64,000 bases of DNA from Escherichia phage vB_EcoM_VR25: the sequence record NC_028925.1, one strand, 5' to 3'. The first letter of the stretch is position 1. Each line of letters opens with the position of its first letter. The notes beneath the pieces are model-generated. The model had not been told where the DNA came from. It saw only the letters and a list, made by a program, of their open reading frames with translations, and made no database searches. Below, in pieces: positions 2,983 to 60,185 of this stretch. The translations under genes were made by a program, and so were the position numbers.

Positions 2983-4815
2983 TTATAGCGTCGCATTCAT
3001 CCAATCTTTGCGCAGCTTCGGTTCTTTACCGAAAAGCATTTCGAACAGTTCTTTCCAGTTTTCAGGTAATTGAACAACTTCGAATACTGGTTCGAGCAAT
3101 ACTCGCTTGTACTCGGAATCTTCCAGAGAACCCAGCCCCTTGATATATCTGATGGTATGCTTTGGAAGTTTATCCTTAGCTTCTTCATAATCAGGGAGAG
3201 AATAGAACCATTCTTGTTTATCTTTGAGCTGTGCAATAATAACAGGAGTTTTCACAAAGCGAATACGTCCTTCATGGAACAGCTCCGGCCAGTTACTGAA
3301 AAATGCCAATAACGATGGATAGATACTACCGACGCCATCCACATCCGCATCTGTCATGATAGCGATATTTCGGTAATTCATATTCTCGGCTGGTTGTCCA
3401 ATCGTTAATCCAGTAATCGCACACACATCAAAGGCTTCTGCGTTTTTCATAACTTCAACAGCTTTCAGACCCCATGTGTTTTTGAACTTACCGCGCAACG
3501 GATATGCACCTTGTAATTCGCGGTCACGAACCTTGATGAATGGACCCGTTGCAGAATCACCTTCGGTCAGGAACAAAGTCGTTTCCAGCTTGTCATTGCC
3601 CCATTCGTTGGCCTTGATATGCTTTTGTACCTTAGCCTTTGAAGCTTTCTTATTCGCCTTAGTCTCTGCTGCTTTCTCTGCAGCCAATTTACGAGCCAAT
3701 GCAGCTTCCACAATCGGCATAATCAGCGATTCATTTTTCAGAATAGCTTGTGCGATTTTCTTAGCATCAATTTGGATATGATTTCGAATCTCGCCAGCAG
3801 GAGAAGTCAATCGCTCCTTGGTCTGGGAATCAAATCGCATATTGCTCATATCGCGGATGAACATAAGCATGGTGAGGCATTCTTTGACTCGTGCTTTAGT
3901 AACTTCGATACCTTTGTATTTGCGCTTAATTGCTGGTTGGAGGTGTTCACAGATATCATCCATAACACATTCAACGTGGTGCCCACCATTCTTTGTATGA
4001 ATGTTGTTGACATAAGTCAGCTGACGGAAGCCGTCTGGGCTGGTCGTGAAAGCCATTGATACTGTATCAGTTTCCTGGATAACAACTTCGGTACCGAATT
4101 GCTTGGAGAACTTCTTGAAGTTGCCATCAACCTTTTTACCATTAAAGGTGAACTGAATATCCGGATAAACAACCGCAAGAGTCTGCAGACGGTCCAATGT
4201 AATATCCAGATAAATCTGGGACAAACTATTTTCTTCGAAGTGACTAAAGTCCGGAACAAAGATAACAGTTGTGCCTTTACCCTTAGATTTCTTGGTAGAC
4301 CAACCTTTGTTTTCCATACCGTTGGAGCAGTTAACAGTAATTTCATTTGCACCATCAGCGGTAATCCCTGTAAACAATACAGAGAAAATATTGGTCAGAG
4401 AAGACCCGACGCCATTCATCCCGCCAGTTTTACGTTCAGCATCATCACCGAAGTTACCACCTGCTTTTGGAATAGTCCATGCTGCAACAGGGCCAGGGAT
4501 TTGTTCACCGTTTTGGTCTGTAACCATTGCTTGTGGAATACCACGGCCATTATCAGAAACCGAAATCTGATTATCTTTAATTTGGACATCAATTTTATTG
4601 GCAAATTTAAAACTGGTGCGAATTGCTTCATCAACAGAGTTATCGATAATTTCATCAATCAGTTTTACAATACCAGGAACATAGCTTACGGACTTATATT
4701 CACCAAACAAGAATCGCTCATGCGCTTCATTTGAACTGGAACCAATATACATCCCAGAACGTTTTTTGATATGCTCGACGTCCGAGAGTACTTTAATTTC
4801 ATTATTAATCATCAT
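2983..4815 (-). CDS. 39: DNA topoisomerase II large subunit, uninterrupted 610 aa (GyrB-like)
   Basis: GyrB-type ATPase and TOPRIM-like sequence; one continuous ORF, so no separate gene 60 as in T4; T2-type organisation. Confidence 0.9.
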   Translation of the reverse strand: MMINNEIKVLSDVEHIKKRSGMYIGSSSNEAHERFLFGEYKSVSYVPGIVKLIDEIIDNSVDEAIRTSFKFANKIDVQIKDNQISVSDNGRGIPQAMVTDQNGEQIPGPVAAWTIPKAGGNFGDDAERKTGGMNGVGSSLTNIFSVLFTGITADGANEITVNCSNGMENKGWSTKKSKGKGTTVIFVPDFSHFEENSLSQIYLDITLDRLQTLAVVYPDIQFTFNGKKVDGNFKKFSKQFGTEVVIQETDTVSMAFTTSPDGFRQLTYVNNIHTKNGGHHVECVMDDICEHLQPAIKRKYKGIEVTKARVKECLTMLMFIRDMSNMRFDSQTKERLTSPAGEIRNHIQIDAKKIAQAILKNESLIMPIVEAALARKLAAEKAAETKANKKASKAKVQKHIKANEWGNDKLETTLFLTEGDSATGPFIKVRDRELQGAYPLRGKFKNTWGLKAVEVMKNAEAFDVCAITGLTIGQPAENMNYRNIAIMTDADVDGVGSIYPSLLAFFSNWPELFHEGRIRFVKTPVIIAQLKDKQEWFYSLPDYEEAKDKLPKHTIRYIKGLGSLEDSEYKRVLLEPVFEVVQLPENWKELFEMLFGKEPKLRKDWMNATL

Positions 4816-8551: not shown

Positions 8552-9872
8552 AATATGCGTCGTACCTCGCTCGTGTGATTCCTACATAAGCCAACTGGCT
8601 CGCTAATGAAGCTTCAGCCATATGGATGCATGGAGTATAGATGAATGCTTTGTTTACTGAAACACCCTGCGCCTTGTGGATTGTACTGACTGGAAGAGCA
8701 CGAACTTTCAAGAAGGTCCGGCGTGCTTTCCAGAAGTCTTTCCACTCTGGACGTTTACCAGCAGCTTTCATCTGTTTGTATGTATCAGCAACTTTCGCCA
8801 GATATGCCTGGAATTTTGGTTGCTGGTCTTCTGGTAAAACTTTGATACGGTCAACCTGATACTCTTCATCTTCATCAATTGACTCAACTTCCAGGTCCCA
8901 GTAATTAATTACCAACTGGTGCGATTCCCCTTTACAACGGAGAATGGTGGAAGTGTATTTGCAATCCTTGATACGAACCAACTGACCATTATTAAAAATG
9001 GTTTCGCTGAATTTCTTACCTTCAAATTCCAGCTCTTTCATGTGTGGCTCTTGCATAACCAGGACTTCATACGGTAAAAATGCTTTATCCGTTTCATAGA
9101 GCTTGCGACGAATAATATTGTTCAGTTTTTCAACTGATTTATTCGTGTACGCATACATCCTATTTTCCATCAACATATCAGCATCTTTTACATGACTGAA
9201 ATAGTTTACCATGAAATCCTTTAAAGCGGTTTGTGAGGTGAAACCTTGTACACCATGACCTTCATACATGCAATCACGGAACCAACCACCGTTACGAATT
9301 TCTGTCGCCACTTCAATGATAGGAGCATTGCTTCGCATGACCTCAGTCAGATGAATCTGTTTGAACTTAGGATGCGTAAAGAATGGACTTATCTTTTGCT
9401 GTGTGCTTCCCGGGTCAACTGGCTGCAGCTGGTGCATATCACCAATCCCAAGAATGGTACACCACTCTGGAACAGAGTTGCAAATAATCTTAAACAGAGG
9501 CCCGTCATACATACTTGCTTCATCACAAATCAGAACATTACATTTTGACATATCAGGCATTTCGCGCTGTTCAAAAATGTTTTGGTCTTCATATGTGGTC
9601 GGGTTAATCTTCAGGATGCTATGGATTGTATTCGCTGTTTGACCAGACAATTTGGATAAAACCTTTTTTGCCTGGTGAGTTGGTGCAGCGAGCACAATTC
9701 CCAAAACTCCATTACGCACCAGGTGGTCAATGACAAATTTTGTCAGAGTAGTCTTACCTGTACCAGCTGGACCATTCAGAGTGATACATTCCCCTGAACG
9801 TCGCTGAATAGCTTCAGTGATATAATCAAAAGCTTCTTTTTGTCCTTTGTTCAAGTCTTCAAATTTAATCAT
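8544..9872 (-). CDS. dda: Dda SF1 DNA helicase, 442 aa
   Basis: Walker A GPAGTGKTT and SF1 helicase motifs; size and position match T4 Dda. Confidence 0.9.
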   Translation of the reverse strand: MIKFEDLNKGQKEAFDYITEAIQRRSGECITLNGPAGTGKTTLTKFVIDHLVRNGVLGIVLAAPTHQAKKVLSKLSGQTANTIHSILKINPTTYEDQNIFEQREMPDMSKCNVLICDEASMYDGPLFKIICNSVPEWCTILGIGDMHQLQPVDPGSTQQKISPFFTHPKFKQIHLTEVMRSNAPIIEVATEIRNGGWFRDCMYEGHGVQGFTSQTALKDFMVNYFSHVKDADMLMENRMYAYTNKSVEKLNNIIRRKLYETDKAFLPYEVLVMQEPHMKELEFEGKKFSETIFNNGQLVRIKDCKYTSTILRCKGESHQLVINYWDLEVESIDEDEEYQVDRIKVLPEDQQPKFQAYLAKVADTYKQMKAAGKRPEWKDFWKARRTFLKVRALPVSTIHKAQGVSVNKAFIYTPCIHMAEASLASQLAYVGITRARYDAYYV

Positions 9873-10168
9873 GCCAATTTTACTCGCTTAACATATAAAG
9901 TATCTAAAACTAATTTCAATTCTCGTGCGTGTTCTTCAGTAGGAAAAACAGTTTTTGTTTCACGCTTATCAAACCACCATTTCCTGGGAATATACCGTGT
10001 TTCAATACGTCCCATGCGTAAATAGCGGTTTGTAGTATATGAATAGTTGGCAAGTTCATAATCTGCGCCAGCTTTTGTGGTGTATAAGGTCACCTTTCCA
10101 TCATACTCCAATGGGTGTTCAAAACCATCTTTATCTTTGTGGACCAGCACATATGCGTAGTACATCAC
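9869..10168 (-). CDS. hypothetical protein, 99 aa (position of T4 dda.1)
   Basis: ATGA-coupled ORF upstream of dda. Confidence 0.5.
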   Translation of the reverse strand: MMYYAYVLVHKDKDGFEHPLEYDGKVTLYTTKAGADYELANYSYTTNRYLRMGRIETRYIPRKWWFDKRETKTVFPTEEHARELKLVLDTLYVKRVKLA

Positions 10169-10169
10169 A

Positions 10170-10916
10170 TTAACCTCTAATCAGTTTAAAAATTGACGCG
10201 TTCAAAGGTAGACCACGTTTCAGTTTTAATTTACCAATAAAACCAATCTTCTCAAAACGCTCAAGACCTTGAATGATTTTATCATAGCAATCAAAAAGCG
10301 TTTCAGCATTAGTTAATTTCTTGGTAACTTTCCAGTCATTACCCTTGAGCAGGACGTTCAATTTAGTAAGCTCATGACCTTCTGCAATACGGGAACCATC
10401 AATGCGGGCCTTCAGAGCAACCATTTTTAATTGGTTTTCTTTTGACTGCTCTGATTTACTCATTTGGGCATAATGCTTAACGCGATTCCCACGTTTGTGC
10501 TGGATGTTCTTTATATGATTGTATGACTTTTTAATCTGTTCCCATTTTTCTGAAGTCAGATTTAACTTTTCAATCTTCTTAGCAGATGGGCGAGCAATTT
10601 TTACAGCAACATCATCACGACGTTGTTTAAGCTCATCCAGGGACCAATCAGAACGCATGGTATTGTATTTCTTTTTAACAGGAATAACATTACCCTTGAT
10701 ATAACCAATATCATTGTTAAAACGTTCTAATGATAACTTCTCGTCTTCAATAGAGTTATTAAATGCTTCACCGGAATAAGCACAAACTTTTTGGTCAAGA
10801 ATGTTAACCAAGTAATTGAAATCCAGGTTAAAGTCCTTACCACGGCGTTTAGCAGAAGCTTGAGTGTGTTCCAGACGACGTTTAACTTTCAGCGTTTTGG
10901 TTTTTGATAAAGTCAT
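10170..10916 (-). CDS. basic 248-aa protein, positional equivalent of T4 srd
   Basis: Lies between dda.1-like and the ADP-ribosyltransferase genes as srd does in T4; Lys/Arg-rich; contains a degenerate HNH-like segment without the catalytic His. Confidence 0.4.
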   Translation of the reverse strand: MTLSKTKTLKVKRRLEHTQASAKRRGKDFNLDFNYLVNILDQKVCAYSGEAFNNSIEDEKLSLERFNNDIGYIKGNVIPVKKKYNTMRSDWSLDELKQRRDDVAVKIARPSAKKIEKLNLTSEKWEQIKKSYNHIKNIQHKRGNRVKHYAQMSKSEQSKENQLKMVALKARIDGSRIAEGHELTKLNVLLKGNDWKVTKKLTNAETLFDCYDKIIQGLERFEKIGFIGKLKLKRGLPLNASIFKLIRG

Positions 10917-10963
10917 GATATTTTTCTCATCTTACGGACGATTAAATAACTCAGTATGGAATC

Positions 10964-10992
10964 ATTATACACTATTCATCTTTTATGTACAC
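10964..10992 (-). promoter_or_regulatory. early-type promoter (-35 GTGTACA, -10 TGTATAATG) with conserved CCATACTGAGTTA leader
   Basis: Read from sequence; nearly identical cassettes recur at about 20226, 47122 and 47720. Confidence 0.5.
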
Positions 10993-11051
10993 TACTTTTT
11001 CGCCTTTAACGCTTTTATTTTTACCGTGTATAATGGTTCTAAGGTCTTTGG

Positions 11052-11666
11052 TTAATTCAAAACAGTTAAATGCCAAACAGTATACAGGTTATTCAATGGG
11101 TGTGTCTCAATTAAATCTACGCGAAGCGTAGTCCCAGCGGGAAACATAAACTCATCCTCATCATTAACCAGGTGTAAGTTTGACTTCCTGGTTGCTTCTG
11201 GATATGCACCATTGAACTCTTCAGGAGGAGCACCGCAAATCATTTTAAAGATTGCTTCCTGATAGTTATACGCATAAGGTGCATTGTTTATGCAGAAAAT
11301 ATTCCTTGTACCATAGAAGCTATATGATGCGAAATTTCTTGCAACCTGCCAGTCCCTGGAAAAACTCATCACACGATTAAACTCAATTGTTGCACCAACA
11401 TATCTTAAATCTTCCAGGTGTTCCATGGTTTTCTTTGATATACCACGGAACAATGCTGCAGGCGGTGCATTGTTCAGATTGTTGCGGATAATCCTGGTTA
11501 AGTCTTCTTGAATCAGGTCGGGTTTATTTTCCATACACTGCCAGAGTACTGATTGCTCATTATCTGTATAAAGAGCATCAATCTCTGCTTGACATTGGTC
11601 ACGAAAAGACTCACTAGAAGCGGCCGTATCAATAATTCCATTCAAAACGTCATCAGTGTACAGCAT
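11052..11666 (-). CDS. modA: ADP-ribosyltransferase (ModA/ModB family), about 204 aa
   Basis: R-S-E signature read in ALFRG ... SFSRDW ... EDEFMFP; start set at an internal ATG after the conserved leader; modA versus modB assignment is positional only. Confidence 0.6.
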   Translation of the reverse strand: MLYTDDVLNGIIDTAASSESFRDQCQAEIDALYTDNEQSVLWQCMENKPDLIQEDLTRIIRNNLNNAPPAALFRGISKKTMEHLEDLRYVGATIEFNRVMSFSRDWQVARNFASYSFYGTRNIFCINNAPYAYNYQEAIFKMICGAPPEEFNGAYPEATRKSNLHLVNDEDEFMFPAGTTLRVDLIETHPLNNLYTVWHLTVLN

Positions 11667-21733: not shown

Positions 21734-22062
21734 CTCTTTTTCATTTTAATCTTATCAATTTCATCTTGTATTTGCATTGTAACACACTTTTCTACATGCA
21801 CTGCAAGCTCCGCTTTGCGGTCTTCAGAAGGGGTGCCGAAATCAACTGAAACTTTTCCAGATGGTTCAATTTTAATTCCGGTTACGTACACAATGTGACT
21901 GGACCCATCGGGAAGTGATAACAGAATTTCCTGTCGTACAGTTCCCATGGATTGCCGGATAATCTCCAAACTTTTTTCGTAGTAAGGTACAGAAGGAGCC
22001 TTAGCTCCCTCCGCATCTTTCTCGAAATTATCTAAATCAGATAAATCGATATCATTCATCAA
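21718..22062 (-). CDS. 40: gp40 head vertex assembly protein, 114 aa
   Basis: Size and position between 41 and uvsX as in T4. Confidence 0.6.
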   Translation of the reverse strand: MMNDIDLSDLDNFEKDAEGAKAPSVPYYEKSLEIIRQSMGTVRQEILLSLPDGSSHIVYVTGIKIEPSGKVSVDFGTPSEDRKAELAVHVEKCVTMQIQDEIDKIKMKKRWWKW

Positions 22063-23230
22063 GGTCTTCCATCATATCTAAATCGTTTTCGATATCTGCC
22101 GCAGATGGTTTTGTCTTACCCACCGGAGCAGAGTATTTTTCAACCTTGGAGGCAATAAGCTCATCAACTTCGGCATCAACAACAGCATTGCTATCGATTG
22201 CACCCAGTTGGTAATGACGTTTGATTGCATCACGGAAAGGTTCGTGCTTGAACAGTGGGCCCCAGAATTCGGTGCAGTTAGTATCTTTGGCTCGCCATGA
22301 TTTTTCTTCGCGGACCATTTCACCGGTCTCAACATCAAGATATTCACGGTTATACCAACCAACTTTCGGCTTCACCACAAATCCGATTTCCATTGCCATA
22401 TCGAGCAGGCCAGAATACGGGTCAATACCACCATCGAATTTTACATCAATGAAGAATTTACTTTTCTCTTTGACCATGCGAGATTTTTCGGCGTTCAGAA
22501 CAAATTGGAAGCCTTCAAGTTCTTTACCAGTTTCTTTAATCTGGCGTTTGCCGATAATGAATACGGTATCCGCAGAATACATAACACCAGTACCACCGGT
22601 CATAACTGTTTTGCTATACATCTCAATCGTCTCGATTGTATGGTTAACCGCGACACAAGGGATATCCTTGATACTAAAGAACGGTGTTACAATACGGAAC
22701 AGAGATTTCAGGGATTTAGCACGAGTCATATCGCCGACGACTTTTTCGTTCAATGCATCTTCTGTTTCTTTTTTCGATGCCATGTTACCGATTGAGTCAA
22801 TAAAGATAATGACTTTTTCGCCACGCTCAATTGCTTCAAGCTGGTTAACCATATCAACTTTCAATTGTTCGACCGACTGGATTGGTGTGTGGATAACACG
22901 TTCCGGGTCTACTTTCATTGCACGAAGATATGCTTCTGTGATACCAAATTCTGAATCATAGAACAAACAGATTGCTTCGGGGTATTTGTTCATATATGCA
23001 GAGACCATCGTTAAACCCATATTGGATTTAAAGTGTTTTGACGGACCAGCAAAAATAGTCAAACCTGACTGCATACCACCATCTAGTGCACCGCTGATTG
23101 CAATGTTCAGCATAGGGATTTTTGTACGAACTACATCTTTATCATTAAAGAACTTGGACTTGGTAAGAGTCGCGGTCATTTTGGATGTAGAAGCTTTAAT
23201 CAAACGGGATTTCAAATCTGCAATAGACAT
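22052..23230 (-). CDS. uvsX: UvsX recombinase (RecA-like), 392 aa
   Basis: RecA-type fold sequence; size and position match T4 UvsX. Confidence 0.9.
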   Translation of the reverse strand: MSIADLKSRLIKASTSKMTATLTKSKFFNDKDVVRTKIPMLNIAISGALDGGMQSGLTIFAGPSKHFKSNMGLTMVSAYMNKYPEAICLFYDSEFGITEAYLRAMKVDPERVIHTPIQSVEQLKVDMVNQLEAIERGEKVIIFIDSIGNMASKKETEDALNEKVVGDMTRAKSLKSLFRIVTPFFSIKDIPCVAVNHTIETIEMYSKTVMTGGTGVMYSADTVFIIGKRQIKETGKELEGFQFVLNAEKSRMVKEKSKFFIDVKFDGGIDPYSGLLDMAMEIGFVVKPKVGWYNREYLDVETGEMVREEKSWRAKDTNCTEFWGPLFKHEPFRDAIKRHYQLGAIDSNAVVDAEVDELIASKVEKYSAPVGKTKPSAADIENDLDMMEDLDE

Positions 23231-23421: not shown

Positions 23422-23925
23422 TCAGTTAATACCTTGACGAGCTTTTTCTTTGGCAATACATTTGTTGATATAAGTCAGACGAGCTTTAGCAGAACGCTGA
23501 TACAATGCATTATACTCTTTTGCTTCTGGAGCGCCTGTCTCCATTGCACGATAAGCTTCTGCACGCATTACATTAATTTGCATACCAATATAAGCTGCGC
23601 ATGTTTCAGCGATGCGAGCAACCATATCCAGGTCATTCTGGCGCTTGGTTTCTGCTTCCAGTTTAGCGATTACTTCATCATGCTTCGCGGCTTGTTCGCG
23701 CTGATATTCAACTTCACGTTGAGCATAATTTGCACAGTTATTTCCACACTGACTATTGGCACGTTTGTAAATCAGACCAGTCCCGCCTTTAAAATCAAAG
23801 GAACCATTATAGCGGGCTTTATCCGCAGCAACACGAGCTTGTCCAACTTCATCAGCACGCACAACATCGCCTTGGTAAGCACAACCAGACAATAACAGAA
23901 CTGCAGCAATCGCTAACTTTTTCAT
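23422..23925 (-). CDS. putative lipoprotein, about 167 aa
   Basis: Start at an internal ATG with GAGGA Shine-Dalgarno; signal peptide with lipobox LSGC; occupies the slot where T4 has beta-gt and 42. Confidence 0.6.
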   Translation of the reverse strand: MKKLAIAAVLLLSGCAYQGDVVRADEVGQARVAADKARYNGSFDFKGGTGLIYKRANSQCGNNCANYAQREVEYQREQAAKHDEVIAKLEAETKRQNDLDMVARIAETCAAYIGMQINVMRAEAYRAMETGAPEAKEYNALYQRSAKARLTYINKCIAKEKARQGIN

Positions 23926-24072
23926 TGTATTTTCCTCAATTAAAACATTCAAACTTGATTTGTAAAATTAACATTATCCAAGCCAAAATAAGAGTTGGAA
24001 TCATTGGTGGAACTGTCACTGCAAAGTAAACAGTCATACCAACAAATATCAGTAAAAGTAAACTAGTTATAA

Positions 24073-24315
24073 TCATTGTTTCACCACAATAATTTGTGCG
24101 TTTGTTTTACGTTCAGCAACGATTGCCCAAATCAATGCAATTACCCAACCAATCATCGTCCAACCAAACAGAAGGTTGATGAAAAAGATTCCGACATTGC
24201 TTCGGGTGCCACGCAGTAATGCGATAATCCATGGTAAGAAATATCCGATGAACATAACGACAAGAGAACCAAAACCAAACACACCAGCACCTACGATTAA
24301 AGCTTCCATTTTCAT
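24073..24315 (-). CDS. imm: superinfection immunity protein Imm (membrane), about 80 aa
   Basis: Two hydrophobic helices with LLFGWTMIGWVIALIWAI signature; immediately upstream of gene 43 as in T4; start ambiguous between two nearby ATGs. Confidence 0.7.
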   Translation of the reverse strand: MKMEALIVGAGVFGFGSLVVMFIGYFLPWIIALLRGTRSNVGIFFINLLFGWTMIGWVIALIWAIVAERKTNAQIIVVKQ

Positions 24316-24370
24316 ATCCTCATTTAGTTGATGAAAGAATAATACGGCAATCCATTGCCGTTGTAAACAC

Positions 24371-27085
24371 TTAAAAGTCAAACATATCAAAAAGAGTTGC
24401 TTTCTTTTCGTAATCAACCTTTGCAGCTTCAGAGAAACCTGTCAATGGCTTAACAAAAGTCTTCTGGAACAGTGTGTTGTAGTCCATCCATTGCAGGACC
24501 TGGTCGCGGATTTCAATCGGGAGTTCAATCCCCGATGGCCATGCAATCACAGTTTCACCAAACGGGTTGCCGACTTTAAGAGGAAGCACATACACTTTTT
24601 CCCCTTCCATGATTTGCGGAACAGTCTTCAGACCTTTAGTTGCACGCATATAAGCGAGCACACCTTTGATATGAGCCGGGCACTTAAATCCAGGGAAACC
24701 ACCTTCGTTATATTTCTGGATGTTGTTAACCGATGATACACCCGCGATGGTCATATAGTTAAGCTCATTAAATTCCTTGTTGAATTCCTTGAAGTATGTC
24801 TGCAGAGATTCTTCACCTTCTTGCAACATACGACGGATACATTCTTTCAGAGCTTTCTGGCATGCCTTTGGAGTACTCGACTTTTGAGTTTCCAGTCCCA
24901 TGATTTTCAGTTTCGGAACAGCATATCGTGTGCCTTCCATATCATATACGTTCAGTGCATAACGCTTCTTCGCTGTCCAGAATCCACCAACACCTTTAGA
25001 ACCCAGCGGAGGACATGCAATTGCTTCACGGTCCATAAACATAAGGTGCTGTTTGTTGTTCATGTATTCAGCCAGTTCACGGAAAGCTTTATCGATTGCC
25101 GGTTCCAGACGGTCTTTTGCAAACTTGTCCATGAAGTCAACCAGGTGGTTTGTATCACGGAATTTAGATTCGCCACCAACCTTTTTAATCAGGTTATCGC
25201 ACTGGATATAAATGGAGTCAGTATCACCATAGAATACGTAAGTCTGACCTTGTGTACCACAAACACCATCAAAGTATTCGTTAACTTTACGTTCAATCCA
25301 CTGCAATGCCAACTGCCCGAAAGATGTAATCGCAGTTGCATTTCGCAGGTCAAAGTAACGGAACCAGATATTGCCCAGGGCACCATAACAGCTATTGATA
25401 AGCAGTTTACGGTTAATCTGTGCGGTCATACCAGCAACTTCTTCCATCTGTGCTTTATACAGCATACCATTCAGGACGGTTTGATTCAGACCATGTAAGG
25501 TTGTTTTCATATTGTCATCAAAGTCATGACGATAATCAACTTCTGGTTCGGTTGTGCCGGTTCCTGGATTACTCAGAGCTTCCTTAATCAGTTCACCATT
25601 ACGTTGAGCAGCAAGCATATAACCTTTGTGTTCTTTACGCTGATTAAACACCTTGGTGACTTCTGTCGGAATAATACCCGCAACATCTTTAAAATACATC
25701 ATACCATTTGGCGCACAACTAAATGCATCAGATGGACGGTCAGCAGTTCCTGCGATGTATTCGTGCATATGGGCTGGTGCAAATGACCCGGCAATCGTTT
25801 CTGGACTGATGTTAATCTGTCGGATGATGCTCGGATAAAGAGATGTTAAGTCGCAGCTCATTACATATTTGTATGCGTTCGGAATCGGTTCCTTAACAAA
25901 TGCACCAGGGAACGATTGACGAACATGTGATTTGGTTTCCGGGATAACCTTGTTTTGAGTCTTCAGACTGTTAAAGATAATCGCATCCCAAGTTTTGATT
26001 GGGCTGAATACAGACTGAATCTGCATCTTTGCATAATAACCCATCGATTGGCTCAGGTTAATGAACTGTCGCTTACGGTCAATCTGTACAACACGATAAA
26101 CGTCAATGATGTTATAGCTAATGTATCGCTGATGATTTGATTCGCGCAGTTTAGAAATCGGGCCATCATACGGGAGTTTACCAACGCCCAGCTCAGATTC
26201 CGCAACATAGTCCAACGAGTAAGATGGTTGGTTTGTGAAGCTGAACTTTTTGTACAGGTCCAGATAATCCAGAACAGAGACACCCAGAATCTGAATGATT
26301 TCTTGTTCTTCACCAAAGCCGTTGTTAATGACTTTAACTTTTGTACGACGATGTGGACTTAGACGTTTTGCCGTAGCTTCACCAAATACATTTTTTAGGC
26401 GGTTGTAGATATATGGAATATCAAATTTCTCGATGTTCCAACCAGTTAACATAACCGGAGTTTTCTCGTTCCAGAATACCAAATACTGCTGGAGCATTTC
26501 TTCTTCTGAATCGAAAGCCATATAAACAATTTTTTCAAGGATTTCACTCGGGACTTCATCACCACCATCTTCCTGCAGCTTAGCAGCAATATCAATAGAC
26601 CATTGCTCCACAGTAGCGTATGGTGAGCCCAAAAGGTCAAAGACATAGAATTTATCGTCTACCGAATCATAGTGCGTCAGGGCATCAATAGGGTGACGTG
26701 CTTCAGACGGCTCAGGGAACCCATCAGGAGATGTCACCTCGATATCGAAGTTAGCCACACGGATTTTACTTGAATCATATTTGATTTCATGTGGGTAACG
26801 GTCGCTCAGGTATGCGAGTTTGAAATCGTCCATACCCATAGCTTCGAGGCCCATATCGTTCATGCGCTTCATCCATTGCGAAGCATCACGCATGGAATCA
26901 AACTCTTTTTTCACACAACCTTTATTATAGATGTCTGAATATTTTGTTGCTTGGCCTTCACGAGCGTGCATAAAGAGACAAGGAGTATATGGAATTTCAC
27001 GGGTTCGCTCATTACCATTCTTGTCAATATAACGTTCGTGAAGATTATCGCCGATTTGTTCGATAGTTAAATAAAATTCTTGCAT
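24371..27085 (-). CDS. 43: DNA polymerase gp43 (family B), 904 aa
   Basis: Exonuclease FDIE and polymerase YGDTDS motifs; size matches T4 gp43. Confidence 0.95.
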   Translation of the reverse strand: MQEFYLTIEQIGDNLHERYIDKNGNERTREIPYTPCLFMHAREGQATKYSDIYNKGCVKKEFDSMRDASQWMKRMNDMGLEAMGMDDFKLAYLSDRYPHEIKYDSSKIRVANFDIEVTSPDGFPEPSEARHPIDALTHYDSVDDKFYVFDLLGSPYATVEQWSIDIAAKLQEDGGDEVPSEILEKIVYMAFDSEEEMLQQYLVFWNEKTPVMLTGWNIEKFDIPYIYNRLKNVFGEATAKRLSPHRRTKVKVINNGFGEEQEIIQILGVSVLDYLDLYKKFSFTNQPSYSLDYVAESELGVGKLPYDGPISKLRESNHQRYISYNIIDVYRVVQIDRKRQFINLSQSMGYYAKMQIQSVFSPIKTWDAIIFNSLKTQNKVIPETKSHVRQSFPGAFVKEPIPNAYKYVMSCDLTSLYPSIIRQINISPETIAGSFAPAHMHEYIAGTADRPSDAFSCAPNGMMYFKDVAGIIPTEVTKVFNQRKEHKGYMLAAQRNGELIKEALSNPGTGTTEPEVDYRHDFDDNMKTTLHGLNQTVLNGMLYKAQMEEVAGMTAQINRKLLINSCYGALGNIWFRYFDLRNATAITSFGQLALQWIERKVNEYFDGVCGTQGQTYVFYGDTDSIYIQCDNLIKKVGGESKFRDTNHLVDFMDKFAKDRLEPAIDKAFRELAEYMNNKQHLMFMDREAIACPPLGSKGVGGFWTAKKRYALNVYDMEGTRYAVPKLKIMGLETQKSSTPKACQKALKECIRRMLQEGEESLQTYFKEFNKEFNELNYMTIAGVSSVNNIQKYNEGGFPGFKCPAHIKGVLAYMRATKGLKTVPQIMEGEKVYVLPLKVGNPFGETVIAWPSGIELPIEIRDQVLQWMDYNTLFQKTFVKPLTGFSEAAKVDYEKKATLFDMFDF

Positions 27086-56528: not shown

Positions 56529-56802
56529 TAATTAATCGCACATCCTGGTCATACGTCAGGAGGCTACGAGTTATAATACCCTTACATGGTCCAGAAATAA
56601 ATTCCAGAGTAAAGTAAGGAACCAACTTCATCAAGCGAATACTCGGAGCAGTGCAACGAAATCTGGACCCAATAAAAGGTCCAGACAAAAACACATACTC
56701 AAAGAAATTTGCTTTATTAAAGATTTCAAAATTCTTTACGAAATCTTCAGACCTAACCTTTGGAATAAAATAGATTTGGTCAAAAAGCTCTTCATGAGTC
56801 AT
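56506..56802 (-). CDS. hypothetical protein, 98 aa
   Basis: ORF in the array. Confidence 0.45.
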   Translation of the reverse strand: MTHEELFDQIYFIPKVRSEDFVKNFEIFNKANFFEYVFLSGPFIGSRFRCTAPSIRLMKLVPYFTLEFISGPCKGIITRSLLTYDQDVRLISDWKKYV

Positions 56803-57329
56803 TATTGCATTCCTATCACAAAGAATAACGGCAAAGGCTTATCACCTTGACACATAAATTTATTCATCATTACCTGATAAGCTTCATAGAACTTATCCAT
56901 TGCAGGGAGGCGAATAGGTTCTTCAATAATGATTAAAAGACGCGTAAAACGCAATCCACGGTACTTATGGAAATTATCTTCATCAAGGAAACTGCGTACA
57001 GTATCATAGACAACGAATCCAGGTCGTTCAACTTGAAGATGTGGTTGTGCCTTAGAAACCCGCTTTATTATATCACAGATTTCTCGGGAGCGATGTGAAG
57101 AACTCGACATAACAATCACATCATTACCCTTGGAAACCCAATCCGCAGCGAACTGTGCAAGGGCACTTGTTTTACCTGTTTGACGACCACCATCAAGTCG
57201 AAGAGTACCAAACTCTTGCATTCTTGAAGCAGGTTCATACCAGGTGTATTGGTCTGAATCTAAGCGTTCAATGGCGCGTTCAGCGAAGGCGTGCATTAAG
57301 GTTAGATAAATTGGAGTTAAAAATTTCAT
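56802..57329 (-). CDS. small P-loop NTPase-like protein, 175 aa
   Basis: Walker A-like GGRQTGKTS and Walker B-like LLIIIEEP. Confidence 0.5.
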   Translation of the reverse strand: MKFLTPIYLTLMHAFAERAIERLDSDQYTWYEPASRMQEFGTLRLDGGRQTGKTSALAQFAADWVSKGNDVIVMSSSSHRSREICDIIKRVSKAQPHLQVERPGFVVYDTVRSFLDEDNFHKYRGLRFTRLLIIIEEPIRLPAMDKFYEAYQVMMNKFMCQGDKPLPLFFVIGMQ

Positions 57330-57490
57330 AGTTGTCTCTTAGTTGTAGGGCCATTCCTTGGCACATTAATTCGTCCATGTATCCGAATGTAAACCCCTTA
57401 CCGCACTCGGGCTCGACCTTATTACAGGTAGGGAAGGGTCCATCACTCAGAGGACACGACGTTCATGAGGAGAGGGTCGGTTTGCCTTTA

Positions 57491-57790
57491 TTAAAAAGAA
57501 CCAGAGCCTTTAATTGTGTTCTGGCGACCTTTATTTTCGAATTCAGAATGGTCGATTTCGTATGCTTGTGCTACGCCAAAGGCCTTTTTAACTTTAGATA
57601 AAGAACCTTTAGATGTAACAATATTAAAAGTATTGCCTTTGGTAAAATCAACCAAATCCACTTGCACACCCTGTTTACCGAGGCTTGCTACAATAGCATC
57701 AACATATTGTTGGTCTAAATTGCCTTGAACCCCAATTTGAAATGCTTTAGGAACTTTGGCTTCTGTGATAAATTCTTGATAAGTTAACAT
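57491..57790 (-). CDS. internal protein with capsid-targeting leader (MLTYQEFITE), 99 aa
   Basis: N-terminal 10 residues match the T4 IP targeting sequence MKTYQEFIAE; divergent body. Confidence 0.6.
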   Translation of the reverse strand: MLTYQEFITEAKVPKAFQIGVQGNLDQQYVDAIVASLGKQGVQVDLVDFTKGNTFNIVTSKGSLSKVKKAFGVAQAYEIDHSEFENKGRQNTIKGSGSF

Positions 57791-57819
57791 TATACACTAT
57801 CCCATCATAAAGTAAACAG

Positions 57820-58083
57820 TTACGCTTTACCGCCAGAAACAATACCAAAGGTCTCAAAGTCCCATTCAATATCGTCAACATCAACTTTCTTACCAGCAAC
57901 CACAAATGCGATTTCGCGACGTTTTGCATAGGTAACAATTTCTTTGCCATCGCCGCCAAAGAAAGAATAACCATTGCGCTTCATGGTGCCAAAGTCTTCA
58001 GCATCACCAGCGAAGGCACGGACTTTAAAAGCACCAGTAGGAGCTTTAGCAGATTCAGTAATAAATTCTTGATAAGTTTTCAT
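57820..58083 (-). CDS. internal protein with capsid-targeting leader (MKTYQEFITE), 87 aa
   Basis: As above. Confidence 0.65.
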   Translation of the reverse strand: MKTYQEFITESAKAPTGAFKVRAFAGDAEDFGTMKRNGYSFFGGDGKEIVTYAKRREIAFVVAGKKVDVDDIEWDFETFGIVSGGKA

Positions 58084-58096
58084 AATGTCTCTTTAG

Positions 58097-58411
58097 TTAA
58101 GCTTTAGGGAAATCGCGCAAAAACGCATCATAAAGTTTATTACCAATGCGACGGAATGCTTTTGCAGCATGAACGTTATCTGGGTTTGCAATTTTAATCT
58201 GCATTACATGACTACCAGCCCATGATTTAGCTTCGTCATAATAACCTTTAATTTCTTTAATAGTCTTGCGTTTTCCACCAGGACCATCAACAGTAATTTT
58301 CCACGAACCAGTGCTTGTTTCACTTGGTGGGGTTAACTGTTCAATCCAGACATAACCACCTTCAACACGTTGTTGAGTAGATTCAGTAATAAATTCTTGA
58401 TAAGTTTTCAT
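58097..58411 (-). CDS. internal protein with capsid-targeting leader (MKTYQEFITE), about 104 aa
   Basis: Start at the internal ATG that begins MKTYQEFITE. Confidence 0.65.
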   Translation of the reverse strand: MKTYQEFITESTQQRVEGGYVWIEQLTPPSETSTGSWKITVDGPGGKRKTIKEIKGYYDEAKSWAGSHVMQIKIANPDNVHAAKAFRRIGNKLYDAFLRDFPKA

Positions 58412-58439
58412 TTTATATTCCATGTTTGGTTGATAAAAT

Positions 58440-58471
58440 CATTATACAACCTTTTTAGTTAAGCGTACACA
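58440..58471 (-). promoter_or_regulatory. early-type promoter (-35 GTGTACG, -10 TATAAT) upstream of an internal-protein gene
   Basis: Read on the minus strand. Confidence 0.4.
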
Positions 58472-58875
58472 GCTTTCCCATAGTATTTGTACCAGGTAGG
58501 CTTTTGAGAAATTTTCTCATTCAGTCTGGATTGACTGATTTCAATTGACCAGATTGATGGTTGATAATCATTCTTCCATTCATCAGGAATATCATTTAAA
58601 TCTTGGGTAGAAATATCTTTTATATTAAACCCTCGCTTTAAACATTCAGCAATAAGTTCTTGATGGCGGTTTTTAAGGAACAAAAGCTTATCATAAAAGA
58701 AGGTGACATGACCAGTTCCTAAAAGAAAAGATGATGGGATTTTAAAGTCAGACACCTTTTTACCATTTTGTACATGCTTACGAACAGCCCCAAACACGCG
58801 AGGAAGCTCACGGTATTCAGCCATAAGGTGTTGGTCAGCAAGTTCAGATACCAGGGTTAAATTAATGCGAGTCAT
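58459..58875 (-). CDS. denV: endonuclease V (pyrimidine-dimer DNA glycosylase) DenV, 138 aa
   Basis: Sequence matches T4 DenV by recall ([35 protein letters not shown] ... [13 protein letters not shown]). Confidence 0.95.
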
Positions 58876-58902
58876 GTTTGTTCCTCCAAGTAGTTGATGG
58901 GA

Positions 58903-58935
58903 TAATAATACATCAATACGAGGAGGTTGTAAACT
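58903..58935 (-). promoter_or_regulatory. early-type promoter (-35 GTTTACA, -10 TATTAT) with CCCATCAACTACTTGGAGGA leader upstream of denV
   Basis: Read on the minus strand. Confidence 0.45.
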
Positions 58936-59216
58936 TATTTTGTGGAAGCAGCCGAGATATATTTTTCAAGACGCTGTTTCATCAGCGAGCCGTTCTTAGC
59001 GATTTCTTCCGGTTTATCGCACATACGCAATAGAGCTTCAAGCTTAGTGATATCAGATGTCCGCTCAAATTTGCGAGTATCTACCTTACTAGCAAGTTCG
59101 GAAATACGCGCTAACAGACTTTCGGCTTCTACCAAAGCTGTGCCCAGCTTAGTTGCAAATGCGTCAGTAGCTTCATTAAGAGTGGTCACGGTCAAAAATT
59201 CATTATAGGTTTTCAT
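58935..59216 (-). CDS. internal protein with capsid-targeting leader ([10 protein letters not shown]), 93 aa
   Basis: Degenerate form of the IP leader; lies between e and denV. Confidence 0.55.
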
Positions 59217-59697
59217 ATACTTTCCAAGTTCCTGTTTTAAATGTTGAGATTACACGTTTCGCTCGATTAGGTGTTTGTTTGTACCATTTGGATTGAGCCA
59301 GGTTAACAGCAGCTTCGTCCCAACGTTTCTGTTGAAGCAACCGAAGGGAGTTAGTAAACCCAGCAACGCCGGCTTCACCCATTTGGAAGACCATATTAAT
59401 CAGGGCACAGCGACGAACTTCGTCAAGACTATCATACACTGGTTTTAATTTAGCATTACGCATAACACTCGCACGTGCTTTTTCCACTGAACGGTTAAAC
59501 AAGGTTTCAGCTTCAACCTGGGTAATCCTACCGTTGCAGACGCGACCCATGAGCTTGTCGAGCTCGGCACGAGCAACATCTTTCGATGGGTTCTTAGTTA
59601 TCAGTTGCCCGATACCGATGGTCCAATATCCTTCGGTATCTTTATACAAATCCAACTTACAACCTTCATCTATGCGTAACATTTCGAATATATTCAT
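59203..59697 (-). CDS. e: lysozyme (endolysin, T4 e type), 164 aa
   Basis: Sequence matches T4 lysozyme by recall ([12 protein letters not shown] ... [13 protein letters not shown] ... [18 protein letters not shown]). Confidence 0.95.
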
Positions 59698-59722
59698 AAT
59701 ACCCCCTTATATAGGGGTATTT
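59698..59722 (-). promoter_or_regulatory. hairpin (tacccccTTATATAgggggta) that includes the e-gene Shine-Dalgarno, with late-promoter-like AATAAATA
   Basis: Inverted repeat immediately 5' of the e ATG; T4 e is known to be translationally silenced in early transcripts by such a hairpin. Confidence 0.55.
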
Positions 59723-59723
59723 A

Positions 59724-60185
59724 TTATCCGAAAATTTGAGTCAAAACCTTGTACATCGATTTACCCATTACGTATTGCCATTGACTCGGTTTAATCAGAG
59801 CGAAAGCATCAAACTCTGGGACCGAACTACCATCCGGGAAGGTATGATATGCGGAGCATTTACTATGTCTGAATTGCTCATGCTCGACCGGGACCGTGTA
59901 CAAAAACAGGTGAAGGTTTTTGTTATCTGAATAACGGAACTCGCCTAGGTCTTTTAAGAATGCCGGGTCATACCGGGTAAAGCCTGTTTCTTCTTCACAT
60001 TCACGCATAGCTGCTTCAATCGGGGATTCACCGGCTTCAACATGACCCTTAGGGATATCCCATTTATGCGCAGGCATACCCGGTTTGCGAGAACCAGTCA
60101 CACGACCCATGAATAACTCTTTATCTTCAGTCATGAAAATAATGCCAGCAGATAATTCTTTCACCACGTTTTTCTTACTCATCAT
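59724..60185 (-). CDS. nudE: Nudix hydrolase NudE, about 153 aa
   Basis: Nudix box GHVEAGESPIEAAMRECEEETG; start at an internal ATG; the long N-terminal extension in the track is probably spurious. Confidence 0.8.
   Translation of the reverse strand: MMSKKNVVKELSAGIIFMTEDKELFMGRVTGSRKPGMPAHKWDIPKGHVEAGESPIEAAMRECEEETGFTRYDPAFLKDLGEFRYSDNKNLHLFLYTVPVEHEQFRHSKCSAYHTFPDGSSVPEFDAFALIKPSQWQYVMGKSMYKVLTQIFG

Follow-up and report, generated by a model that had tools for sequence, protein, structure and literature searches.

What is the function of four small genes that lie on both sides of denV in a T4-like phage, share the N-terminal leader of the T4 internal proteins (IP) and differ completely behind it? 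The answer proposed here, to which we assign a probability of about 0.85, is that they are T4-type IP cassettes, the products of which would be loaded into the prohead core, cleaved by the prohead protease gp21 and injected with the DNA, most likely to counteract host restriction. The last part is drawn from what is known of phage T4.

The four genes and their neighborhood

The window, as we call the whole 64-kb stretch of DNA that was analyzed, is 98.8% identical to VR7 and 95.6% identical to VR20; by its sequence, the source phage is a VR7/VR20-like coliphage of the genus Gaprivervirus. A sequence-only reading had described four small open reading frames with an internal-protein leader flanking denV, and all four were indeed found there, each on the minus strand:

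57491-57790, minus strand: ORF A, ip7 family, 99 aa, with the leader MLTYQEFITE at 57761-57790
57820-58083, minus strand: ORF B, internal head protein of the VR7 ORF127c / RB69 ORF125c family, 87 aa
58054-58083, minus strand: leader of ORF B, MKTYQEFITE
58097-58411, minus strand: ORF C, ip10 family, 104 aa, with the leader MKTYQEFITE at 58382-58411
58459-58875, minus strand: denV, pyrimidine-dimer DNA glycosylase (Pfam PF03013 Pyr_excise, E 1e-15)
58935-59216, minus strand: ORF D, ip5 family, 93 aa, with a 10-residue leader at 59187-59216
59203-59697: lysozyme gene e, the end of which overlaps the start of ORF D by 14 nt

The frame of ORF C is open further up to an ATG at 58423 (MEYK...), where there is no ribosome-binding site. 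The gene order in the window is vs.8, A, B, C, denV, D, e, nudE, and in T4 it is vs.8, denV, ipII, ipIII, e, nudE. Thus the denV-e interval contains both IP genes in T4 and just ORF D in the window, where ORFs A, B and C are found between vs.8 and denV. The gene separating ORF C from ORF D, which is annotated as denV in VR20, VR7 and T4, is a conserved anchor between two cassette sites and not itself an internal protein.

The window genes are direct orthologues, in the same positions, of VR7 Ip7 (ORF A), VR7 Ip10 (ORF C), VR20 Ip5 (ORF D) and the ORF B protein of ECML-359. For Ip7 (T2), Ip5 (T6) and Ip10 (phage Pol) orthologues are annotated in VR7, VR20, SP18 and RB69 (ORF124c, ORF125c), T2 Ip7 being just about 46% identical to ORF A. 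The VR7 and VR20 records already name ip7, an internal head protein (ORF B), ip10 and ip5, so that genes and leader were already known from the closest published genomes and the annotation gains nothing new. The window is a mosaic of a VR20-like ip5, a gene absent from VR7, and a VR7-like left part, which is marked by a 27-nt deletion and a leucine codon discussed below.

The capsid-targeting leader

When the window was scanned in six frames for MKTYQEFI with up to two substitutions, only ORFs A to D matched. The N-terminus of T4 IPII and IPIII, the sequences of which were read for comparison, is MKTYQEFIAE, one residue off MKTYQEFITE, and the T4 genes have the same strand and neighborhood (vs.8, denV, e); the proposed match to the T4 targeting sequence is therefore borne out. 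ORFs B and C have the same 30-nt leader (two occurrences versus none in 100 shuffles), from which that of ORF A differs in 4 positions (26/30 nt identical). It had also been proposed that the first 30 nt of all four genes are near-identical. This is correct for A, B and C (26-30/30) and not for ORF D, whose leader agrees with the other three in just 20-22/30 nt. In the 30 nt flanking the leader on each side, identity is at background level.

Mutagenesis of the T4 IPIII leader has assigned residues 4 and 7 to targeting and residues 8 and 10 to processing (PMC9026906). The two targeting residues, Tyr4 and Phe7, are present in all four leaders. Among 74 leader-bearing ORFs from 31 T4-like loci Tyr4, Glu6, Phe7 and Glu10 hardly vary, and most of the nucleotide differences fall on third codon positions. 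Leaders within a genome are slightly more alike than leaders of different genomes (25.1/30 versus 24.7/30 nt), a difference so marginal (p = 0.04 on non-independent pairs) that no concerted evolution is claimed.

Predicted cleavage by gp21

The gp21 motif Leu/Ile-x-Glu is found at residues 8-10 of ORFs A, B and C as Ile8-Thr9-Glu10, and cleavage is predicted after Glu10. The mature parts would then be of 89 aa (A, pI 9.3), 77 aa (B, pI 6.2) and 94 aa (C, pI 9.6). ORF D has Leu-Thr-Val10 at this position and thus no Glu10, followed further down by Leu13-Asn14-Glu15. Relatives of Ip5 do have Glu10, and LNE15 is kept in all of them. The propeptide of ORF D therefore probably comprises residues 1-15 (59172-59216), with a predicted cut after Leu-Asn-Glu15. 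A precedent is T4 IPI, whose gp21-cut capsid-targeting propeptide of 19 residues likewise is without Glu10 and is cut further downstream, after Ile-Thr-Glu19, to yield IPI* (PMC9026906). The gene of IPI is at another locus, next to 57B, and none of the four proteins resembles its product in sequence. In Gaprivervirus the second IP locus, which in VR20 adjoins 57B, lies outside the window, as do the genes for gp21, gp22, gp67 and gp68, which the nearest relative VR20 encodes at 101.6-103.8 kb.

Unrelated bodies under purifying selection

Behind the leader the four proteins were said to diverge completely, which the comparison upholds: the mature parts gave no blastp match with one another, and the hhalign probability was at most 0.7%. 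They are also unrelated to the mature sequences of IPI, IPII and IPIII (best blastp E 0.095 in a three-sequence database; hhalign at most 1.8%), and in clustering all four fall outside the IPII-like and IPIII-like families. PHROGs places ORFs A and B in one family. A distant paralogy of the two was ruled out by hhalign on the leader-stripped families, and since neither blastp nor hhalign gives a signal between the leader-stripped bodies, the joint family most likely reflects the shared N-terminus, consisting of the leader and a short AK-P--AF stretch.

Each of the four families is present in 188-495 sequenced phages. ORF A is 98.9% identical to VR7 Ip7 and belongs to PHROG 2667, internal head protein (E 2e-41); ORF B is 100% identical in ECML-359, its family being found in 204 phage records; ORF C is 100% identical to VR7 Ip10 (188 records) and matches PHROG 3966, which has function unknown in PHROGs; and ORF D is 98.7% identical to VR20 Ip5 (495 records) and matches PHROG 3499, internal head protein (E 6e-46). 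Leader, position in the denV-e region, the VR7/VR20 annotation and the PHROG class internal head protein (A, B and D) together support that the four encode internal proteins. All bodies are under purifying selection, with dN/dS of 0.04-0.28 (A), 0.09-0.20 (B), 0.35-0.39 (C) and 0.10-0.13 (D), thus 0.04-0.39 overall.

Pfam contained no match for the four proteins, and PDB sequence matches for ORFs A and C were by chance only. The AlphaFold model of Ip7 (pLDDT 71) has a compact ferredoxin-like core and a disordered leader; its structural matches are generic ferredoxin/ACT/RRM-like folds that give no functional lead, and IPI* is not among the top ones. The Ip10 model, built on an alignment of three sequences, is weak (pLDDT 52) and not usable for a structure search. 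In 5.8 billion proteins the homologues form 15 clusters for Ip7 and 2 for Ip10, all phage-like, which is too few for building deeper profiles.

With pI 8.8-9.6 and 10-12% Lys, the products of ORFs A, C and D are basic, like the similarly small T4 IPs. This raises the question whether the packaged proteins could be mainly structural, as DNA-condensing counter-ions or as helpers of the scaffolding core, rather than inhibitors of a host defense. T4 IPs bind DNA at low salt, IPIII mutants assemble heads more slowly and form more polyheads (PMC9026906), and lysines of internal proteins touch DNA phosphates (PMC3012670). We consider a mainly structural role improbable all the same: at least 17 unrelated families are swapped among close relatives and yet each is under purifying selection, which a general role in charge or packing does not explain; T4 without any IPs grows on standard hosts (PMC9026906); and specific anti-restriction targets are now known for all three T4 IPs (PMC12373910). 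Moreover, ORF B is not basic. Its near-neutral body, unlike the basic T4 IPs, also counts against the IP-cassette reading.

Promoters, stem-loops and the start of ORF A

Three promoter-like elements were found at the locus:

57789-57816, minus strand: promoter-like TTTACT-16 nt-TATAAT, the -10 element of which overlaps the ATG of ORF A
58905-58933, minus strand: T4-type early promoter TTTACA-17 nt-TATTAT upstream of denV
59718-59725, minus strand: candidate late promoter AATAAATA, a 7/8 match to the T4 late promoter TATAAATA

The early promoter upstream of denV is overlapped by a short stem-loop, TTGATG...CATCAA, and the whole is an element of the PeSL type, for which the consensus TTTACW-N17-TAYWAT has been published (PMC4122927). 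Equivalent promoter/stem-loop elements precede denV, ipII and ipIII in T4. The element at 57789-57816 is the remnant left by the 27-nt deletion, which is common to the window and VR7 and took away the GGAGAG ribosome-binding site of ORF A together with half of its stem-loop. In addition, codon 2 of ORF A is for Leu in place of Lys. The 161-nt gap after ORF A, searched for a structured RNA, gave no Rfam match and a folding z-score of -0.7.

The missing ribosome-binding site and Leu2 count against the IP-cassette reading. They could mean that at least one of the genes, above all ORF A, is a remnant, in decay or badly expressed, from which protein no longer reaches the virion, and the lack of Glu10 in ORF D could be taken in the same sense. 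We regard this as quite unlikely, because the frames of A and D are intact, with 94-99% identity to their relatives, and because the dN/dS values given above for these two genes are low. Also, ORF D keeps its LNE15 site, and position 2 of the T4 leader is among those altered by suppressor substitution, only positions 4 and 7 being named as mainly responsible for targeting in a review (PMC9026906).

An exact TATAAATA was not found within 55-62 kb, which also counts against the IP-cassette reading. Late expression must consequently use read-through or the 7/8 site, which lies 28 nt before e and from which late transcripts could read into ORF D, denV and ORFs C, B and A. At the corresponding site before e, T4 has two late promoters that match exactly.

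Gain and loss of cassettes

Comparison across 31 T4-like loci revealed the variable set that had been expected: 1-4 leader-bearing genes per locus, belonging to at least 17 families and found on both sides of denV. The set differs from phage to phage as entire cassettes are gained or lost. That the leader acts as an anchor for recombination, as the sequence-only reading had it, is supported by two observations. In VR26 the leader of ORF B is fused in frame to the ip7 (ORF A) body, which indicates that cassettes are removed by recombination at the leader; and in loci with ip7 directly after denV, homology to the window breaks off precisely where the ORF C leader ends on its 3' side. Overall, 46 of 169 homology breaks are at leader edges versus 10.5 expected, an enrichment confounded both by a general effect of gene boundaries and by the non-independence of the genomes.

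The shared leader and the intergenic promoter/stem-loop elements would thus provide the points of homologous exchange. In hyperplastic regions of T4-like genomes, PeSL repeats are known to flank variable genes and to coincide with insertions and deletions (PMC4122927), as the short intergenic elements do at this locus, and in T4, too, such elements lie between the IP genes. The difference from PeSL is that here the 30-nt leader, which is a repeat within genes, appears to be an exchange point as well, the VR26 junction being inside coding sequence and not in a PeSL.

Function and DNA modification

The leader with its pattern of conservation, the T4-like gene order, the purifying selection, the cassette turnover and the one fusion are supported directly by the sequences compared. 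Packaging, cleavage, injection and an anti-restriction role of the four proteins we infer from T4, and no report on the presence of these four families in virions or on their injection was found in the accessible literature. By this analogy, each protein would start with a capsid targeting sequence of some 10 residues, which would bind to the prohead's gp22 scaffolding core; gp21 would then cut after Leu/Ile-x-Glu (at Glu10 in A-C and probably at Glu15 in D), and the freed mature protein of 8-10 kDa would remain in the head with the DNA, be co-injected and act in the cell ahead of any phage gene expression. There it would most likely block, in a specific manner, a nuclease with which the host attacks the incoming phage DNA.

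A variable injected set of anti-restriction proteins is the standard published view of IPs (PMC3012670). In 2025 it was reported that T4 Ip1, Ip2 and Ip3 each inhibit a different GmrSD variant, and by then these three were the only IPs with known targets (PMC12373910). In contrast to T4 IPII and IPIII with their GmrSD targets, the four window proteins are proposed to act against restriction by analogy.

Glucosyl-hmC (genes 42, a-gt and b-gt) is the classical GmrSD substrate. By tblastn no homologue of T4 gp42 or b-gt was found in the window and in VR20 from 1 to 162 kb; in the remaining approximately 8 kb of VR20 neither gene 42 nor b-gt is annotated, a-gt is not annotated in VR20, and the gene-42 slot is occupied by a lipoprotein-like ORF. 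Published surveys concur that Gaprivervirus is without hmC synthase and glucosyltransferases (PMC8056088, PMC12115623). Since the genus keeps dCTPase, denA, denB and alc, its DNA is probably modified in another way, and the analogy to T4 GmrSD and glucosyl-hmC may not carry over. The absence of gene 42 and of the glucosyltransferases thus counts against the IP-cassette reading in its T4 form, as a glucosyl-hmC-specific GmrSD may not be a threat here.

It is conceivable, if doubtful, that the four are injected effectors directed against targets other than GmrSD, be it other early-acting defenses, type IV enzymes for the base of this genus, or a take-over function like that of Alt, a head-delivered protein with another role (PMC9026906). 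In favor of this are, besides the probably different DNA modification, the bodies without similarity to IPI, IPII and IPIII. On the other hand, Ip7, Ip5, Ip10 and the ORF B family are common also in Tequatrovirus and Mosigvirus, which have glycosylated cytosines, and are therefore not specific to the DNA chemistry of Gaprivervirus; and a wide range of modified DNA serves as substrate for GmrSD-family enzymes, BrxU for example (PMC13390438). Effectors with such targets refine the proposal of injected IP cassettes and do not contradict it.

Significance

A tentative extension, which we hold to be possible rather than probable, is that the four proteins, and with them the three to five at the 57B locus, are specific inhibitors of defenses that differ from the glucosyl-hmC-directed GmrSD enzymes blocked by T4 Ip1-3. 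Their targets could be type IV nucleases recognizing the genus's own base or unrelated early-acting systems. If this were true, each of the four sequence-unrelated families would be a new anti-defense protein with a target of its own. The IP cassettes are a ready catalogue of proteins that would be injected before phage gene expression; the Ip7, Ip10, Ip5 and ORF125c-like families, being common, are reasonable candidates for anti-defense screens, and the cassettes are of relevance to the choice and engineering of therapeutic T4-like phages.

Gene order and the shared leader

The four small ORFs that the sequence-only reading had recognized around denV as internal-protein (IP) genes are present in the following co-oriented group of six genes, and a six-frame scan found no leader beyond theirs in the 64 kb.

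57491-57790, minus strand: ORF A (ip7 family), 99 aa, starts MLTYQEFITE
57820-58083, minus strand: ORF B (internal head protein), 87 aa, starts MKTYQEFITE
58097-58411, minus strand: ORF C (ip10), 104 aa, starts MKTYQEFITE
58459-58875, minus strand: denV, 138 aa, pyrimidine-dimer DNA glycosylase (Pfam Pyr_excise)
58935-59216, minus strand: ORF D (ip5), 93 aa
59203-59697, minus strand: e, lysozyme, 164 aa

The group is flanked upstream by nudE and downstream by vs.8 (56802-57329), whose product matches phrog_1488 (E 3e-68) and, weakly, P-loop NTPase and terminase N-terminal profiles (Pfam E 0.005-0.03). The leader, the N-terminal capsid targeting sequence of about 10 residues, reads MKTYQEFIAE in T4 IPII and IPIII, differing at one residue from B and C. 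That its 30 nt are near-identical at the DNA level holds for A, B and C: the B and C leaders are identical (2 matches versus 0 in shuffles) and that of A differs from them by 4 nt, whereas the D leader, matching the other three at only 20-22 of 30 nt, is clearly more divergent. The 30 nt flanking the leader on each side show background identity.

Relatives and mature parts

Over 2.5 kb the locus is 95.6% identical to that of Escherichia phage vB_EcoM_VR20, at full length, and 98.8% identical to that of VR7, where the alignment ends just upstream of the denV start codon; both phages belong to the genus Gaprivervirus, and VR7 is missing ip5. Their RefSeq records name A to D ip7, "internal head protein", ip10 and ip5, the B orthologue being VR7ORF127c, similar to RB69 ORF125c. 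Since the nearest published genomes already annotate the four genes, the finding is not novel, and reading them as IP genes is essentially the textbook interpretation. PHROGs places A and B in phrog_2667 and D in phrog_3499, both "internal head protein", and C in phrog_3966.

With the mature parts as tblastn queries against 50,697 phage records, the Ip7 family was found in 282, the B family in 204, the Ip5 family in 495 and the Ip10 family in 188, in phages of Escherichia, Shigella, Klebsiella, Enterobacter and Salmonella; one of the matches of ORF A is T2 ip7, at 46% identity. An Ip10 relative of 149 aa on IMG/VR contig 2974737508 (ORF at locus position 3929) has an apparent extra N-terminal domain before the Ip10-like part, which suggests domain accretion inside an IP cassette.

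Behind the leader the four bodies diverge completely, as had been claimed: blastp found no match among them, and hhalign gave probabilities of at most 0.7%. Nor do they resemble T4 IPI*, IPII* or IPIII*, no relatives were found in Pfam or, for A and C, in the PDB, and the predicted structure of Ip10 was unusable as a model. All four are under purifying selection (dN/dS 0.04-0.39). The mature part has a pI of 9.3 in A, 6.2 in B, 9.6 in C and 8.8 in D, compared with 9.6-9.7 for T4 IPII and IPIII.

The leader as probable targeting signal and predicted cleavage site

The 74 leader ORFs compared, from 31 T4-like loci anchored on denV, have nearly invariant codons for Met1, Lys2, Tyr4, Glu6, Phe7 and Glu10, and variation falls mostly on third codon positions and residues 5 and 9, the pattern expected under selection on the peptide. 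This conservation matches T4 leader mutagenesis, in which residues 4 and 7 were assigned to targeting and 8 and 10 to processing, Asp10 blocked processing with targeting intact, and the propeptide was 10-19 residues long (PMC9026906). ORF A has Leu2 both here and in VR7; in T4, position 2 was among the substituted sites, Leu included, and targeting was placed mainly at residues 4 and 7 (PMC9026906).

The prohead protease gp21 is expected to cut after Leu/Ile-x-Glu, and A, B and C have Ile8-Thr9-Glu10. ORF D has Val10 here and in VR20, where its relatives have Glu10. Because Leu-Asn-Glu at 13-15 is kept in all Ip5-like and neighbouring families, and because T4 IPI, likewise lacking Glu10, is cleaved at residue 19 (MKTFKEFTSTTTPVSTITE, then A), a cut of D after Glu15 is predicted. 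The protease and core genes lie outside the window; VR20 encodes gp20, gp67, gp68, gp21, gp22 and gp23. VR20 has a second IP locus adjoining 57B, the ipI position of T4, containing two or three small genes besides ip6 and ip9 (9567-11110 of the VR20 stretch examined), which brings the lineage to roughly seven to nine IP genes.

Cassette turnover and the leader as a proposed recombination anchor

Among 80 denV loci from IMG/VR, the 31 T4-like ones carry one to four leader ORFs each, always on the denV strand and on either or both sides of denV; they fall into at least 17 families (blastp), some of which, e.g., IPIII-like and Ip7, are found on either side.

The leader had also been proposed as a recombination anchor, and two comparisons argue for this. 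VR26 lacks B, and its ip7 starts MKTYQEFITESAK-VPKAF..., i.e., the leader and first codons of B fused in frame to the body of A, a deletion with its junction at the 3' edge of leader homology. In loci with ip7 directly after denV, homology to the window spans denV to the C leader, stops exactly at 58382 and restarts at the A body. We regard VR26 as direct comparative evidence of leader-mediated cassette loss. Of 169 blastn endpoints (alignments of at least 150 nt) 46 lie within 8 nt of a leader versus 10.5 expected, a count that is only indicative, as related genomes were compared and breaks are common at gene boundaries generally. Leaders within one genome were not convincingly more alike than those between genomes.

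Expression signals

No exact T4 late promoter (TATAAATA) occurs in 55-62 kb. A site matching it at 7 of 8 positions, AATAAATA, precedes e by 28 nt, where T4 has two exact ones, and we infer late IP expression by read-through from e. A T4-type early promoter/stem-loop precedes denV (58933-58905), and in VR20 another precedes ip7; both fit the promoter-early stem-loop (PeSL) consensus (PMC4122927). The two elements (58890-58935; about 2991-3046 in VR20) have in common a 15-nt core, ATTATCCCATCAACT, with a GGAG-type ribosome-binding site after it, and as direct repeats bracketing denV, ip10 and ORF B are possibly a second kind of exchange point beside the leader.

Relative to VR20 (2991-3046), the window (57789-57816) and VR7 (2992-3020) share the loss of 27 nt immediately before ip7. 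This deletion takes out the GGAGAG ribosome-binding site together with the 3' arm of a stem-loop of 11 bp, and it gives rise to TTTACT-16 nt-TATAAT, whose -10 box overlaps the ip7 ATG. Codon 2 in this lineage is Leu rather than Lys. From sequence, ip7 translation may be reduced there.

A non-coding stretch of 161 nt (57330-57490) separates the ORF A stop from the vs.8 start, compared with only 26 nt between vs.8 and its next upstream gene, denV, in T4. Distant T4-like loci conserve it at 74-84%, even with different flanking genes. It had no Rfam match, its folding was not significant (z = -0.7), and a hairpin with a GTTTAC -35-like box in its 3' arm may mark a PeSL element.

Function and DNA chemistry

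IPs are regarded as diverse injected defence inhibitors with only the targeting sequence in common (PMC3012670). Only Ip1 had been characterized until 2025, when T4 Ip1, Ip2 and Ip3 were shown each to block a different GmrSD nuclease, without cross-protection (PMC12373910).

Between uvsX (22052-23230) and imm (24073-24417), a position occupied in T4 by segA, b-gt and gene 42 (dCMP hydroxymethylase), there is a single lipoprotein-like ORF (23422-23952, minus strand, beginning MKKLAIAAVLLLSGC). With T4 gp42 and b-gt as queries, tblastn found nothing in the window or in the VR20 stretches searched (1-162 kb), the annotation of VR20 as a whole contains no a-gt, b-gt or gene 42, and two surveys concur, proposing that Gaprivervirus has an unknown non-canonical base (PMC8056088, PMC12115623). 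Glucosyl-hmC DNA, the classical substrate of the targets of T4 IPs, is therefore probably absent here. VR20 retains gp56 (dCTPase), denA, denB and alc.

An anti-type-IV role of A to D is still plausible by analogy, since GmrSD-family enzymes can be promiscuous (PMC13390438) and Tequatrovirus and Mosigvirus phages carry these IP families too. To the known picture of these genes the analysis adds the cassette loss in VR26, Val10 of Ip5 with its predicted cut at Glu15, the damaged ip7 translation start in the VR7 lineage, and the occurrence of IPs in a genus that lacks the hmC pathway.
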